Below are positions 6,001 through 12,000 of a stretch of DNA of 64,000 nucleotides, piece by piece; position 1 is the stretch's first letter; each line of letters begins with the position of its first letter. The stretch is from the NCBI RefSeq assembly GCF_003334385.1, contig NZ_QOWN01000001.1; one strand, written 5' to 3'. Position numbers: made by a program. The DNA is from Escherichia coli (lineage in GTDB: Bacteria; Pseudomonadota; Gammaproteobacteria; Enterobacterales; Enterobacteriaceae).

Positions 6001-9000
6001 TCTGGTAATGGTTTCTTCAGGCGTGCCTCGGTACTGTGCAGCGCTCGCCAGGCATCTTTTAGCTGTGCGAACCGAAAGCTAATTGCCGTATCAAACAAGC
6101 GCTGCACCAGACGCTGACGTTTCAGGATAAGGTGATAATTCAGCGGGGGTTGATTCATCAGGAGCTGTTGTTGCGTTGCCCGCGGATTGTCTGCGGCAAG
6201 TGGTGTCACCGGATATTTTCCTGTATCGGCATCGGCCAGAATACGCTGTCCTTTCGGACTTAACAGGTAGTGAATAAAGCGACGGGCTGCATCGGCGTGT
6301 GGGCTTTTCCTGAGAATTGCAACGTAGGTGGGGGATACCGCAGACCGGGGGAAATAGGTAAAAGAGATATGGGGGTCATTTAACAGTAAATTAGCATAGT
6401 TATCGATAACGGGGCCGGCAACGCCGAGTCCGCTTTTTATTTTATCGGCTACGCCAAAACTGCGGGAGGAGATTGTCACCAGGTTTCCTGCACTTGTCAG
6501 CAACGTTTCCCATCCTTTCACCCAGCCTTTTTGCTGTAGTAATGACTCAACCATTAAATGGTTAGTATCTGAACGCGACGGACTACTCATCAATAAAGCG
6601 TCCTGATAGATCGGCAAAGCAAGATCGTCCCAGTCAGCAGGGGCAGGAAGGTGTTTTACAGAAAGCGCAGGACGATTAATAAGCAGACCAAAACCTGATA
6701 TTGCTACTGCAACGGAGGTTGCACGGATCGACTCCGGCACCAGGTTTTGGCTTTCTGCGGGTGCATCATCAAACGGGGCCAGTTTCTGGTGCTCCTGAAG
6801 GTGCTGGAGCAGCATTGGTGATGAAGTCAGGATCAGATCGACGTTTTCTACGTTGGCCGTATCAAGCAACTGTTCCAGTGAGGCACTGGTGCGGTTAAGC
6901 GTACGGATCATTACCGACTCAGGCTCTGTTTGCCAGCGCTGTATTATCCACGTGATAGCTCCGGGTGAGAATGTGGTGGCCATCACCAGTTCATTTCGTT
7001 GAGCCCTGACGGCCCCGACATCCATCAACAACAGTAAAAGAATCATGGTTTTGATGCCGATTTCGCACCAACTAAAGAATCGGTTTGTGATCCAGGTCAT
7101 AAATATTAATACACCGCAAAAATCGCATTGAGACAAAAATTACCCGTTTCAGACACTTCGTCTGATAACACGTCTGTTCAAAGAGACCGTTAATATATTA
7201 ATCAGAGATTACCCGATAATCAGCATGAGATTTGTTAATATCCGCACATGCTAACAACAAACCAGATAAAGCATAAATCTGCCCTGTCTATGCATCAATA
7301 AAATGGGTCAAAAACAGGCTTTGATTTTATTATTTTGTGTCAATTGTGACACATTTTTTCAGTTTGATATTTCATCTCAATTATATAACTCTCATTGTCA
7401 GAATACTCCTGATGTTCATATCAATATAAAATACAGGTGAAGACATGTTATCAATATTTAAAACGGGGCAAGCGGCGGATAGTGTTCCGGCGGAGAAAAT
7501 TCAGGTGACATATCGTCGCTATCGTATGCAGGCGTTACTTAGCGTATTTCTGGGGTATCTTGCATACTATATCGTGCGTAATAATTTCACCTTATCAACG
7601 CCTTATCTTAAAGAGCAATTAGATCTCAGCGCCACACAAATTGGCGTACTGAGTAGCTGTATGCTTATCGCCTATGGTATCAGCAAAGGAGTGATGAGTA
7701 GCCTTGCCGATAAAGCCAGTCCGAAAGTCTTTATGGCGTGTGGGCTGGTGTTATGTGCCATCGTTAACGTTGGCCTGGGATTCAGCACCGCATTCTGGAT
7801 TTTTGCGGCATTGGTTATTCTGAATGGTCTTTTCCAGGGAATGGGCGTTGGTCCTTCTTTCATCACTATTGCTAACTGGTTCCCTCGCCGGGAGCGTGGT
7901 CGGGTTGGTGCTTTCTGGAATATCTCTCATAACATCGGTGGTGGTATTGTTGCACCGATTGTTGGTGCCGCTTTTGCCCTACTCGGCAGCGAGCACTGGC
8001 AAAGTGCGAGTTATATCGTTCCGGCCTGCGTGGCCATCGTTTTTGCGGTAATTGTGCTGATTCTCGGTAAAGGTTCCCCACATCAGGAAGGTCTACCCTC
8101 TCTGGAAGAGATGATGCCGGAAGAAAAAGTCGTCCTGAATACCCGACAGACGGTAAAAGCACCAGAAAACATGAGCGCCTTTCAGATTTTCTGCACTTAT
8201 GTATTACGCAATAAAAATGCCTGGTATGTCTCACTGGTTGACGTATTTGTATACATGGTGCGCTTCGGGATGATTAGCTGGTTGCCTATTTATCTGCTGA
8301 CGGTGAAACATTTTTCAAAAGAACAAATGAGCGTCGCATTTTTATTTTTTGAATGGGCCGCGATCCCTTCCACGCTACTTGCCGGTTGGTTGTCAGACAA
8401 ACTGTTTAAAGGGCGTCGTATGCCATTGGCGATGATTTGTATGGCGCTGATTTTCATTTGCCTGATTGGCTACTGGAAAAGTGAATCGTTGTTTATGGTG
8501 ACAATTTTTGCTGCCATTGTTGGTTGTCTGATTTACGTTCCACAATTTCTGGCTTCCGTTCAGACTATGGAGATCGTGCCCAGCTTTGCTGTTGGCTCCG
8601 CGGTAGGTTTACGTGGTTTTATGAGCTATATCTTCGGTGCATCTCTGGGCACCAGCCTGTTTGGTATTATGGTCGATCATATTGGCTGGCATGGCGGATT
8701 TTATCTTCTTGGCTGCGGTATTATTTGTTGCATCATTTTTTGCTGGTTATCACATCGTGGTGCAATTGAACTTGAACGTCACAGAGCCGCATATATAAAA
8801 GAGCACTAATTACCTTCCCCAGGGTCGTTTCCCTGGGGAGTGGAGCATATTATGATTTATAAGATATCTGGCAATCAGAGATTAATATGGAAATTTTATA
8901 AAACTGATGACAATAAATGGAGATGGTATTGTCATGAGAAAAATGGATATCTTTTGTCTCAATCAGATAACGCATATAATTCGCAATTGTTATGCATTGA

Positions 9001-12000
9001 AAATGCTAAAAAACAGGGGTACTCAGACGAATCAGTCTTGCCACTTTTTCTACATATTTCCTACATTCAGGAAAAAGGCTGGAAATGGTATCAATGTTAT
9101 GGCTGTGGATATATCGTAAAACAAGCATCTGTTTTCTTTCCGACATACCAAGCATGTATCATTGATGCTGAACAAGAATGTATTGGTATACTAGTTCAAC
9201 TGTCTGAAAAAACTTGAGCCACCCCTTGAAATGCCAAACAGTGGATGTATCTTAAGTTAACGTTACCCGCTGACGTCGATATTCTCGCGGAGAGCGATAA
9301 CCCAACGCACTGTGCGGATGGTTTTCATTGTAATGCTCGATCGCTACTGCAAGGTTATGCACTGCCGTTCTTACATTCGGTTTCGGCATGAACGCGATGT
9401 AGTCTTCCTTCATCGTTTTCACGAACCGTCTGCCATTCCATTACTCTGAGGACTGCTGACTGCCGTCGTGCAGGGCTCCAGATTCAGCTCTCTGGCGAAC
9501 TGCCGTGTTTCATGCGCTCTGTACGCTGAACCGTTATCTGTCAGCCACTGGATGGGCTCTTCCGGCACTTTATCGCCAAAGCCTTTTTCTATCGCTCCTG
9601 ACATCACATCCTGTACTGTCGCTTTATCGTAACCTCCCGTACTGGCTGCCCAGTCGATGGCTTCACGATCACAACAGTCCAGGGCGAACGTAACCCGGAC
9701 TTTTTCGCCATCATCACAACCGAACTCGAAGCCATCAGAACACCAACGCTGGTCGCTTTCCTTCACCGATATTCGGCCTTTATGTTCCCGCTGCAGCCGT
9801 GATGGTTTGTCATGTAACAACAACAGGCTGTTTTCGCTCATTATTCGGTAAACGCGCTTTGCATTCACGAACGGCAAGCCTTCATTTCGGGACTGCCGTC
9901 TGAGTATCGCCCAGACACGGCGATACCCATATGCTGGCATATCGCCAATGATATCCAGGATGCGCGATAAGACTTCTGCATCCGCAGCCTCATCGCGTCT
10001 CTGACGCCGTTTATCTGGCTTGTTATCAGATGCCTTCATCCGTAATGTTAGCTGCGCACGCGACACGCCCAGAACACGGCTTACCGGAGCTATTCCTTGT
10101 CCGAAGGTAACAAGGGCACATGCGCTATCCATTTTCGCGATTGTGCGTACTCCACCGCTTCTTTGAGGATCTCAACTTCCATTGTTTTCTTGCCCAGTAA
10201 ACGCTGAAGCTGATTAATCTGCTTTATCGCAGCGGCCAGTTCAGAAGCAGGAACAACGTCTTCACCGGCAGCAACAGCAGTGAGGCTTCCTTCCAGGTAT
10301 TGTTTTTTCCACTTAAACAACAGGCTGGGCTGAATGCCATGCAAACGTGCCACGTGGGACACAGTCATGCCAGGCTCCATAGTCTGTTGAATAATTGCGA
10401 TTTTTTTTCTGAGGTGTTTTACGTTTACGCACCTCTTTTCCTAACAAAACGCCAGCAATCTCAAAATTAGAACTAGTGTTAGACATATATCCAAGCCTAC
10501 CTCTTATTTTAAGATACATCTACTGTCTGGTATTTCAGGGGGCCAGTCTAGTATTTCACTGTGTTGTATTGAATCTGTATTTTCTTCGCACCTCGTTTAT
10601 CTCATCTCTATAGACAATGCCATCAGATAACTCATACCCTTCAGCACAACGCTGTGTGTCGTTAATAATCCGTCGTATCCATTCTGTTACAGCATGCCTG
10701 ATAAATACCATCTGTAAGTTATTACCGTTTTAGATCTGATTATGAGCGAAAGCATTAATTCGCTCACAGAGCTTAAAACATCATTAACTTTCAGGAGTCA
10801 TCAACATGCCTAAATCTTACACACCAAACTGGTTTTTTACCGCTTTACTTGACAATCACATCAATCAAATGATGGCACGCTATTCCTGCCTGCGGGCCTT
10901 ACGCATGGATTTCTTCTACAGGAAAGATACGCCTGATTTCTTACAACCTGATCATCGCTGGCTTGAATTGCAGTTGCGTATGCTGCTGGAGCAGGTAGAA
11001 CAATTTGAAAATATCGTTGGTTTCTTCTGGGTGATTGAATGGACGGCTGATCATGGTTTTCATGCGCATGTCGTTTTCTGGATCGATCGTCAGAGGGTTA
11101 AAAAAATATATCCCTTTGCGGAGCGGATAGCGGAATGCTGGCAGGCAATTACGTATAACTGTGGTTCGGCGCACCGCTGTACATATCAGCCGCATTATGC
11201 ATACAACATCAACATTCCTGTGCGCCACAACGATCCTGAAAGCATCGATAATATTCGCGGTGCCCTGCATTATCTGGCGAAAGAAGAACAAAAAGACGGG
11301 CTGTGTGCCTACGGCTGCAATGAAGTTCCTGAACGTCCTGCTGCAGGGCGTCCTCGTAAGCCTCACTTCTGAAGCTTAAGGCCTGAGCCTCCGCTCCTGG
11401 AAACACTCCGTCGGTAAAAACTTACCGCATTGATTAATGATGTGAACTGAAGTCAACGGAGATCATTCATCCTGAACCTGAATCCGGTGTTCTGTTCCTT
11501 GCCGGTTACCGGATCTTCCCGTTCTGCTTCAGTTCTTCACTTATTCCATCAATCTCATCCGCAAGCCATAACACGTCAGCTCATTCACGGGCAGGACGCA
11601 CTGTGGGCTGCGCATAACGGAACATATCTTATGAATGCTATTCCTTATTTCGACTATAGCCTGGCACCCTTCTGGCCGTCTTATCAGAACAAAATCATCG
11701 GTATCCTTGAGCGTGCGCTGCGTGAGCAGTCCGGCTCCCGGATACGACGGATCCTGCTTCGTCTGCCATGTGAATATGACCGTACCTTCAGCAGCAGAAA
11801 GATCTGGTTCGGTATGGACTTTATCGAAACCGTCAGTGCGCTGATGAATGTAACCTCCGGACGTGATCTCTGCTGGCTCCTGACTCGTCATCCTGAAAAG
11901 CCGGAATACCACGTGGTGCTGTGCGTCAGACAGGAGTATTTCGATGGCTCTGAACTGGATCGGCTGATTCTTGATGCCTGGAGCAACGTACTGGGCTTCA

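Follow-up and report, generated by a model that had tools for sequence, protein, structure and literature searches.

Introduction

Target duplications in the IS3 family measure 3-5 bp, with 5 bp in the IS2 subgroup (PMC10045372). IS2 itself has asymmetric left and right ends, where the left terminal repeat (IRL) serves exclusively as a recipient end without donor function, and it possesses an A6G frameshift window, AAAAAAG (PMC3299598). The name ISEc48 follows the NCBI PGAP naming of intact copies, and a literature search on it found papers that merely list the name, with no further account. Copies of one IS or isoform are expected to be near-identical along the whole element, both termini included, with about 95% nucleotide identity or above as the usual ISfinder convention.

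In the 64-kb window, i.e., the whole stretch of Escherichia coli DNA that was analysed, an ISEc48-like element abuts a small gene downstream of pgtP. The element bears the RefSeq label 'IS3 family transposase, frameshifted'; its status as a frameshifted IS3-family pseudogene is already known from this source and is a case of ordinary genome decay. With a probability of about 0.8, we consider the element to be a decayed, immobile fossil combining two IS2-subgroup insertion sequences.

Results

Identity and Extent of the Element

Alignment with intact relatives revealed a 1336-bp, ISEc48-like element of the IS3 family, IS2 subgroup, on the minus strand at positions 9215..10550 (Table 1). Both ends were fixed by alignment with ISEc48 (strain Rb-50, L003) and its sibling L004, all being 1336 bp in length, and a defective IS2-type element with two broken frames, as placed in this interval by the first-pass annotation, was thereby confirmed in its coordinates and ends. 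The body shares 94.6% nucleotide identity with ISEc48 over 1326 bp, compared to 87.5% with a plus-oriented IS2-group species, termed IS-B and represented by the full-length copies L017 and L018, and 69% with IS2. No second IS2-group fragment was found elsewhere in the 64-kb window.

Once both indels were repaired, neither OrfA (131 aa) nor the 306-codon orfB frame was interrupted, and each protein was 96% identical to its ISEc48 counterpart. The repaired frames overlap, with orfB in −1 phase and the overlap sequence CGAAAAT kept, and a programmed frameshift between orfA and orfB is annotated by PGAP in the intact relatives. Repaired OrfB scored 205.6 bits on NCBIfam NF033516 (IS3 family transposase; cutoff 160). 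The element, thus, shows the overlapping orfA/orfB, the DDE (DD35E) rve-type transposase after repair and the imperfect 5'-TG terminal repeats of the IS3 family.

The element is as long as ISEc48, its orfA and orfB overlap in the same way, and its left end is near-identical, starting with TAGACTGG in the window and with TGAGCTGG in ISEc48. It differs by two frameshifts, by the lack of a 15-16-bp target duplication and by its outer right 31 bp (9215..9245), which are replaced by the left end of another IS. With IS2, it shares the family architecture, and the best NCBIfam matches of its proteins were IS2 TnpA and IS2 TnpB; protein identity was 73% for OrfA and 63% for OrfB. An assignment to IS2 itself was rejected based on the 69% DNA identity, the scores below the IS2-specific NCBIfam cutoffs (PRK09413, 191 versus 229; PRK09409, 418.8 versus 597) and the presence of CGAAAAT in place of the A6G window.

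Table 1. Features of the locus between the small gene and the right flank of the element (window positions).
Feature	Position	Strand	Remark
Small conserved gene, 121 aa	8852..9217	+	directly downstream of pgtP; alternative GTG start 8840; RefSeq WP_000639470
TGA stop of small gene	9215..9217	+	first three bases of IS terminal repeat
41-bp IRL-type terminal repeat, probable relic of IS-B	9215..9255	+	not IRR of ISEc48-like body
10-bp tract TGTATCTTAA	9246..9255	.	common to IS-B IRL and ISEc48 IRR; type switch inside
orfB (DDE transposase, rve-type)	9252..10172	-	-1 frame versus orfA, overlapping; 1-bp deletion
ISEc48-like body	9256..10550	-	inner right end, then orfB, orfA and own left end
orfB 1-bp deletion	9429..9430	-	GCA GAA CGG to GCA GAC GG
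orfA (HTH / IS2 TnpA-like)	10090..10486	-	ATG 10486, stop 10090; +1 frameshift
A8 run (T8 on plus strand) with orfA frameshift	10401..10408	-	GA6 in intact copies
True IRL of ISEc48-like body	10509..10550	-	begins TAGACTGGCCCCCTGAAATACC...
Right flank	10551..10805	+	upstream of Gp2/YagK-like gene; novel joint

The Small Gene and Its Stop Codon

Reading the sequence directly, the open reading frame 8840/8852..9217 was found to be closed by the TGA of the IS end, as previously noted. The uninterrupted homologue L010 ends ...SEKTVI* and reads ACA GTA ATT TAA at the stop position; homology to it stops at window position 9213/9214, and the gene in the window ends ...SEKT, with two codons (Val-Ile) lost. 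The first-pass annotation had suggested that the insertion clipped the 3' end of the gene, which holds for the two codons lost relative to L010, but the clipping is ascribed to an older IS and not to the present element. In the homologue comparison it had called for, L010 ran two codons further.

Homologues of the small gene are always located downstream of pgtP, and dN/dS values of 0.06-0.29 were obtained for every pair except the closest. The encoded protein is Cys-rich, with four invariant Cys residues, and confined to the position downstream of pgtP in Escherichia. With its conserved core retained in full, the gene is an open, selected reading frame; the two codons that it lacks are not conserved, and it should be regarded as essentially intact rather than disrupted.

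The AF2 model of the protein (pLDDT 79) predicted a tandem beta-beta-beta-alpha arrangement, with unit 1 comprising strands E12-17, E23-28 and E34-37 and helix H45-54, and unit 2 comprising strands E65-72, E76-83 and E88-91 and helix H99-110. The top Foldseek matches in the PDB were 2k49, 2k8e (YegP) and 6q2z, followed by 3bid, at probabilities of 0.97-1.0 with E-values of only about 0.02, and the single-domain TM-score was 0.72. Two such tandem units are likewise present in YegP/UPF0339/DUF1508 (2k8e, 2k49, 3bid, 6q2z). From these known proteins, the small protein differs in being Cys-rich and in lacking profile support: Pfam PF07411 (DUF1508) gave no match at E ≤ 10, but noise only, for the protein or any of eight aligned homologues, the NCBIfam search returned nothing, and hhalign of the homologue alignment against E. 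coli YegP placed the expected W-x-W...NG motif in register at a non-significant probability of 0.5%. The YegP/DUF1508-like label given to the gene earlier is, thus, backed by the predicted fold and not by Pfam, NCBIfam or hhalign, and we assign a YegP/DUF1508-like fold with moderate confidence.

The Gene-Side End of the Element

The gene-side terminus of the element begins with TGAGCCACCCCTTGAAATGCC... and was previously taken as the present element's own end. Comparison revealed it to be rather an IS-B IRL: against the IRL that strain SA186 carries at this very junction, 38/41 positions agree, i.e., with three differences, versus only 30/43 for the ISEc48 IRR. The CFT073 copy matches the window at 40/41 positions, and local BLAST of the gene-side end against the IS-B IRL gave 94% identity. 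Bases specific to IS-B extend up to 9245, and those specific to the ISEc48 IRR start at 9256.

Plus-oriented IS-B relics were found at the identical small-gene junction in SA186, Rb-3, Q5 and 536, being 93-94% identical to the first ~395 bp of the full-length copies; in E. coli 536, the match covers the gene end and the 41 bp, after which the sequence diverges like that of SA186. These relics share with the window the junction, the TGA stop and the near-identical 41-bp repeat. In the relics, the repeat runs into its own plus-strand orfA and ends after ~395 bp, whereas the window repeat runs into the inverted ISEc48-like body. The two ends of the window element, TGAGCC... (9215) and TAGACTGG... 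(reverse complement, 10550), match at 33/42 aligned positions. Both ends are IRL-type, with no cognate right end.

Lesions in the Transposase Frames

At the orfA site, intact copies read CAG-GAAAAAATC and the window reads CAGAAAAAAAATC, corresponding to a G>A change plus one additional A. The same homopolymer site is GA6, A7 and A8 in the IS-B relics of Rb-3, Q5 and SA186, respectively. The open orfB frame starts at element nt 379 (window 10172), with the first ATG at 10132 and the stop at 9252; here, the window reads GGCAG-ACGG with one A missing, compared to GGCAGAACGG in intact copies. Within the NGMAERF motif, this deletion hits the codon for Glu, which lies 35 residues past the second Asp (DD35E spacing), and costs this codon and the last 56 residues independent of orfA. 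As in IS3-family transposases in general, this Glu is presumably the catalytic residue. The element encodes no transposase.

A base-by-base alignment with CFT073 and ATCC 11775 revealed one difference in the whole element (9237, A versus G) and the presence of both indels; therefore, both lesions are real mutations and not read errors. Both had been located correctly beforehand, in the 8-nt run of orfA (A8 versus GA6 in intact copies) and near 9430 in orfB. The possibility that this frame arrangement is native to the element did not hold, as intact ISEc48 copies are in frame at both sites, and the doubt raised about the homopolymer length was dispelled by the A8 shared with CFT073 and ATCC 11775 and the junction shared by ~127 genomes.

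Left End, Flanks and Target Duplication

The boundary at 10550/10551 was set by empty sites in APEC O2-211 and YZ22PE106. The first 13 bases of the IRL of the ISEc48-like body (TAGACTGGCCCCC) are presumably the same as those of the IS2 IRL. The right flank is not contiguous with the post-gene DNA of IS-free genomes and, therefore, the element marks a novel joint; the empty sites of this flank have a different native left neighbour. L010 and L014 have common downstream DNA, which is missing from the window, and a search for L010-type downstream DNA in the 64 kb found none.

At the element, with the flanks ...GAAAAAACT (left) and GTATTTCAC... (right), no target duplication of any length was found, including the short flanking duplication characteristic of the IS3 family. 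Reading of the flanks, thus, agreed with the earlier statement that no clean 5-bp duplication is visible, but the 5-bp expectation behind it was wrong for the ISEc48 clade. In contrast to the 5 bp of the IS2 subgroup (PMC10045372), unrearranged relatives make duplications of 15-16 bp, which were perfect in 7/7 copies examined; an eighth copy contained a single mismatch. The lack of a duplication is attributed to the element being a fusion.

Distribution in E. coli

The hybrid junction was present in ~127 of 5,426 complete E. coli genomes, once per genome and always at this locus; among these 5,426, the hybrid end was not found at any other locus. The SA186-type arrangement is represented by ~160 genomes. 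The reciprocal joint (outer ISEc48 IRR with inner IS-B) was absent from the complete E. coli genomes, including those of CFT073 type, where the best matches started at query base 20 and represented ordinary IS-B ends. No genome was found to retain both parents, with IS-B adjoining the small gene and an ISEc48-like copy still intact at the right-hand site. The source strain of the window is a CFT073-type E. coli, in which the element adjoins the pgtP locus.

Discussion

Fusion of the left end of an older IS-B with an ISEc48-like body probably explains the element. In a first, documented step, IS-B inserted in plus orientation into the small gene, two codons short of the gene's end, and the left repeat of IS-B, TGAGCC..., swapped the Val-Ile-stop codons for an immediate TGA. 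In a second step, an ISEc48-like element would have resided in opposite orientation upstream of the Gp2/YagK-like gene, and an exchange in register within the shared 10 bp, TGTATCTTAA, may have joined its body to the IS-B left end, removing the remaining IS-B and any DNA between the two repeats. Since the repeats are in direct orientation on the chromosome, such an exchange would delete the intervening DNA. The outcome, as observed, is the 1336-bp element with IRL-type repeats at both ends, through which the Gp2/AlpA/pap island segment is connected with the pgt locus. The body has gained the +1 indel in orfA and the −1 indel in the Glu codon of orfB, both of which are present in the window. 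As no genome with both parents was found, we infer in which order the events took place and what interval was deleted. The most likely route for the second step would be a short-homology deletion; 10 bp are very short for RecA-dependent recombination, and illegitimate recombination, template switching or a transposase-mediated event could be involved.

Much of the locus could be read as a single, minus-oriented IS2-like element that entered the 3' end of the small gene in one insertion and decayed later, with 9215..9255 as its own IRR; its length equals that of intact relatives, its ends are inverted-repeat-like and the TGA sits in the terminal repeat. However, the gene-side end matches the oppositely oriented IS-B IRL of the same junction better than the ISEc48 IRR, it is very unlikely that two elements with near-identical 41-bp ends hit the same base independently, the end sequence is absent from every other locus, and the 15-16-bp duplication of all seven unrearranged copies is missing, rendering this reading quite improbable. 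The same two parents might also have been joined by inversion, where the IS-B IRL recombined with the IRR of a plus-oriented ISEc48-like copy and the segment between was flipped. The hybrid joint by itself fits both topologies, but the reciprocal joint is absent from complete E. coli genomes, and, therefore, deletion is favoured over inversion; with no further IS2-group fragment in the window either, we consider an inversion improbable.

In principle, both frameshifts could stem from sequencing or assembly errors, or the A8 run could be a programmed slippage site in a functional element, given that homopolymers are generally known to be error-prone and A-runs to support transcriptional slippage. 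Against this stand the same A8 and the same missing base in CFT073 and ATCC 11775, the independent sequencing of the ~127 genomes with the junction, the in-frame GA6 of active ISEc48 copies, the loss of the Glu codon and of the OrfB C-terminus regardless of orfA, and the occurrence of the element once per genome at one locus, leaving this explanation hardly credible. End-targeted insertion has been described for IS911, and the hybrid end might be a transposase-driven scar of a cross-species version of this event rather than a product of host recombination, with the left end of another, resident IS serving the ISEc48-like element as a surrogate or target. We regard this as unlikely; if true, cross-talk between two IS species would be naturally recorded at this locus.

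Returning to the fusion of an IS-B left end with an ISEc48-like body, the IS2 left end cannot act as a donor, and an element with two left ends is, therefore, probably not mobilisable in trans either, with the donor/recipient asymmetry being established for IS2 and not for ISEc48. A decayed IS in a well-studied uropathogenic E. coli island is of little importance as such; by marking where recombination joined the pgt locus to the Gp2/AlpA/pap island module, the element helps to reconstruct how the island was assembled.

The consistent 15-16-bp duplications of ISEc48-type elements are more interesting than the decayed element itself. In the literature, discrete long duplications were found described for the IS481 and IS1202 families and none were found for the IS3 family. 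The 15-16 bp correspond to one helical turn beyond the 5 bp typical of the IS2 subgroup.

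Structure of the element and its lesions

The window was found to come from an island of extraintestinal pathogenic E. coli of the CFT073 kind. Over 7.5 kb, only a few SNPs and small indels separate it from CFT073; within the element, the sole difference lies at 9237, where the window has A and CFT073 has G. The feature represents ordinary IS decay, already annotated in public genomes; in RefSeq, the element is given as a frameshifted IS3-family transposase pseudogene.

Features at the locus and in the IS copies used for comparison
Feature	Sequence	Coordinates	Context
pgtC	window		before pgtP; first in local gene order
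pgtP	window	7445..8809	between pgtC and the small gene
Hypothetical (small) gene, 121 aa	window	8852..9217	between pgtP and the IS pseudogene
IS3-family pseudogene (the element)	window		minus strand; between the small gene and the Gp2/YagK-like gene
Inovirus-Gp2/YagK-like gene	window	10806..11372	followed by an AlpA-like regulator, then papI
ISEc48 copies	L022-L026		inside dcuC, cvaB, a fimbrial usher, a porin and a glycosyltransferase gene; perfect 15- or 16-bp repeats
IS-B copy	L017	981..2316	15- or 16-bp repeat
IS-B copy	L018	978..2297	15- or 16-bp repeat
Intact sibling copy	L004	1482..2817	15-bp repeat with one mismatch

Two intact relatives, ISEc48 of strain Rb-50 (L003; PGAP label 'IS3-like element ISEc48 family transposase, programmed frameshift') and its sibling L004, were aligned with 9170..10600 in reverse complement. 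The alignment placed the element ends at 9215 and 10550, the length being 1336 bp in all three copies, and revealed two indels setting the window copy apart. In orfA, CAG-GAAAAAATC of the intact copies reads CAGAAAAAAAATC in the window, so that A8 spans precisely 10401..10408; for orfB, GGCAGAACGG becomes GGCAG-ACGG, with a base lost at 9429/9430. Upon repair of both indels in silico, the 131-aa OrfA and the 306-codon orfB frame were fully open, with 96% identity to the ISEc48 proteins and 73% (OrfA) and 63% (OrfB) identity to those of IS2. Repaired OrfB was assigned by NCBIfam to the IS3 family with 205.6 bits (cutoff 160); the best subfamily matches, IS2 TnpA and IS2 TnpB, were both below their curated cutoffs. 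These data bear out the first-pass annotation, coordinates included: the IS2-like element is defective, neither of its frames being intact. The orfB deletion hits a Glu codon 35 residues past the Asp of WLTDNG, which we take to be the catalytic Glu of the DD35E triad in IS3-family transposases. The element is unable to make a transposase.

Sequencing error as the source of the frameshifts was rejected, since base-by-base alignment revealed both indels in CFT073 and ATCC 11775, and a 106-bp stretch across the gene/IS junction was present at full length in ~127 of 5,426 complete E. coli genomes, with one copy per genome, invariably at the small-gene locus.

In each of two distinct IS species, the orfA site 10401..10408 proved to be a hot spot for run-length change. 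GA6 is present there in intact ISEc48; in relics of IS-B, an older sister IS2-group element (L006, L007 and L008, ~3020-3030), the run is GA6 in Rb-3, A7 and in frame in Q5, and A8 and frameshifted in SA186. This suggests a G>A change followed by slippage, arising independently.

Chimeric nature of the gene-side end

ISEc48 matched the window from 9234 inward only, its outer right end, TGTTCTTGCCCCCTTATTTCC..., being unlike TGAGCCACCCCTTGAAATGCC... of the window. The small gene of SA186, Rb-3 and Q5 terminates at the identical TGA and junction and is followed by TGAGCCGCCCCTTGAAACGCCAGACAGTGGATGTATCTTAA, which continues into a plus-oriented orfA; in strain 536, the match covers the gene end and these 41 bp before divergence sets in, as in SA186. 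This plus-oriented relic shares 93-94% identity with the initial ~395 bp of IS-B, an element represented by the full-length copies L017 and L018 and having yet another right end. The 41 bp of the window shared 38/41 identities with the SA186 left end (CFT073 copy versus window, 40/41), whereas the gene-side end shared 30/43 with the ISEc48 right end. IS-B-specific bases extend up to 9245, and bases specific to the ISEc48 right end begin at 9256; the intervening TGTATCTTAA is common to both end types. On the basis of these identities and the switch between 9245 and 9256, the element is a chimera: an outer left end derived from an older IS-B in plus orientation has been joined, in register, to a minus-oriented ISEc48-like body, and both termini are of the left-end type. 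The hybrid end was found at no other locus in complete E. coli genomes.

In IS2, the left end is an exclusive recipient end without donor function, which is not restored by changing the terminal TA to CA (PMC3299598). If this asymmetry carries over to ISEc48, even a supply of transposase would fail to mobilise an element whose two ends are both left-type.

Right-hand junction and origin of the fusion

Where the Gp2/YagK-like gene is not preceded by the element, genomes read ...CGTATTTTTCT|GTATTTCACTGTG..., which confirms the boundary at 10550/10551 and shows that the native left neighbour of the right flank is not the pgt locus; the element thus occupies a novel joint. A minus-oriented ISEc48 has its right end facing the same way, on the plus strand, as the IS-B left end; therefore, exchange between the two ends would delete the intervening DNA. 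A short-homology deletion could have joined the IS-B left end to the ISEc48-like body in this way, and we favour this route, with 10 bp being too short to name the mechanism confidently. An inversion would have left a reciprocal joint; however, when this joint was built in silico, none of the complete E. coli genomes matched it at full length, and the window contains no other IS2-group fragment, making inversion the disfavoured route. For the deletion, no intermediate genome was found.

The Gp2/YagK-YfjJ-like gene (inovirus-type) is intact in the window (188 aa) and annotated as frameshifted in CFT073, where an extra AT follows window position 11105.

Target duplication

The norm for the IS2 subgroup is a 5-bp target duplication (PMC10045372). 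Intact ISEc48 was flanked by perfect direct repeats in 5/5 independent insertions inside genes, and ISEc48 and IS-B together by perfect repeats in 7/7 copies, with an eighth showing one mismatch. The repeats of the two IS-B copies measured 16 and 15 bp; both copies were checked against single-copy empty sites, which occur in >2,000 and 68 genomes, respectively. ISEc48 and IS-B make 15-16-bp target duplications. Reports of discrete duplications longer by about one helical turn cover the IS481 and IS1202 families but not the IS3 family (PMC10045372); the length made by the ISEc48 clade may already be in ISfinder. No direct repeat of any length flanks the window element, as a fusion of two separate insertions would predict. 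The earlier remark that a clean 5-bp duplication was missing holds in that no repeat is present, but 5 bp is the wrong length for this clade.

The small gene

As proposed in the first-pass annotation, the TGA at 9215..9217 supplied by the IS end closes the small ORF. Homologues of its product (60-96% identity, 111-128 aa) are encoded directly downstream of pgtP in every case. The closest without a nearby IS (L010, P0002; 85% identity) ends with CTG TCT GAA AAA ACA GTA ATT TAA (...LSEKTVI*), versus CTG TCT GAA AAA ACT TGA in the window. Nucleotide homology ends at 9213/9214, and the window lacks the DNA found 3' of the gene in L010, which also occurs at the more distant locus L014; hence, the insertion removed two codons. 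The defective IS, the IS-supplied stop and the clipped gene were thus upheld; what required correction, besides the duplication length, was the insertion responsible, as the gene-side end is that of the older IS-B and not of the element now present.

The conserved part of the protein reaches about residue 108, C-terminal tails differ from homologue to homologue, and the final residues were modelled with low confidence. A dN/dS of 0.06-0.29 for all but the closest pair indicates purifying selection. The label 'DUF1508-like' was not supported by sequence, with no match in Pfam or NCBIfam and no significant hhalign alignment to YegP, but gained support from the fold. The AlphaFold2 model (pLDDT 79) contains two beta-beta-beta-alpha units, and the best PDB matches in Foldseek were the UPF0339/DUF1508 structures 2k49, 2k8e (YegP), 6q2z and 3bid (probability 0.97-1.0, E-values only ~0.02), supporting a DUF1508-like protein.

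IS elements have repeatedly landed and decayed just 3' of pgtP. The small gene is cut after its first 177 nt in E. coli MP1 (L021, 2501..2677) and ~150 other genomes, an IS66-family insertion following at the cut point in MP1; in FEX669 (L009), it diverges over the last ~32 bp, beside another transposase remnant, and L011 carries degenerate IS2-group fragments ~220 bp downstream. Between the pgtP stop codon and the small-gene ribosome-binding site GGAG (8842..8845), a hairpin with a perfect 8-bp stem is present at 8817..8838 (CCCCAGGG-TCGTTT-CCCTGGGG), with no T-run after the stem.

The Rb-3 allele (L007, 2513..2878) is mosaic relative to the window gene, with synonymous-site differences (dS 0.2 over the first 108 codons), FEX669-like substitutions from ~9100 to ~9140 and identity to the window from ~9141 to the IS junction, a pattern which suggests recombination within the small gene.
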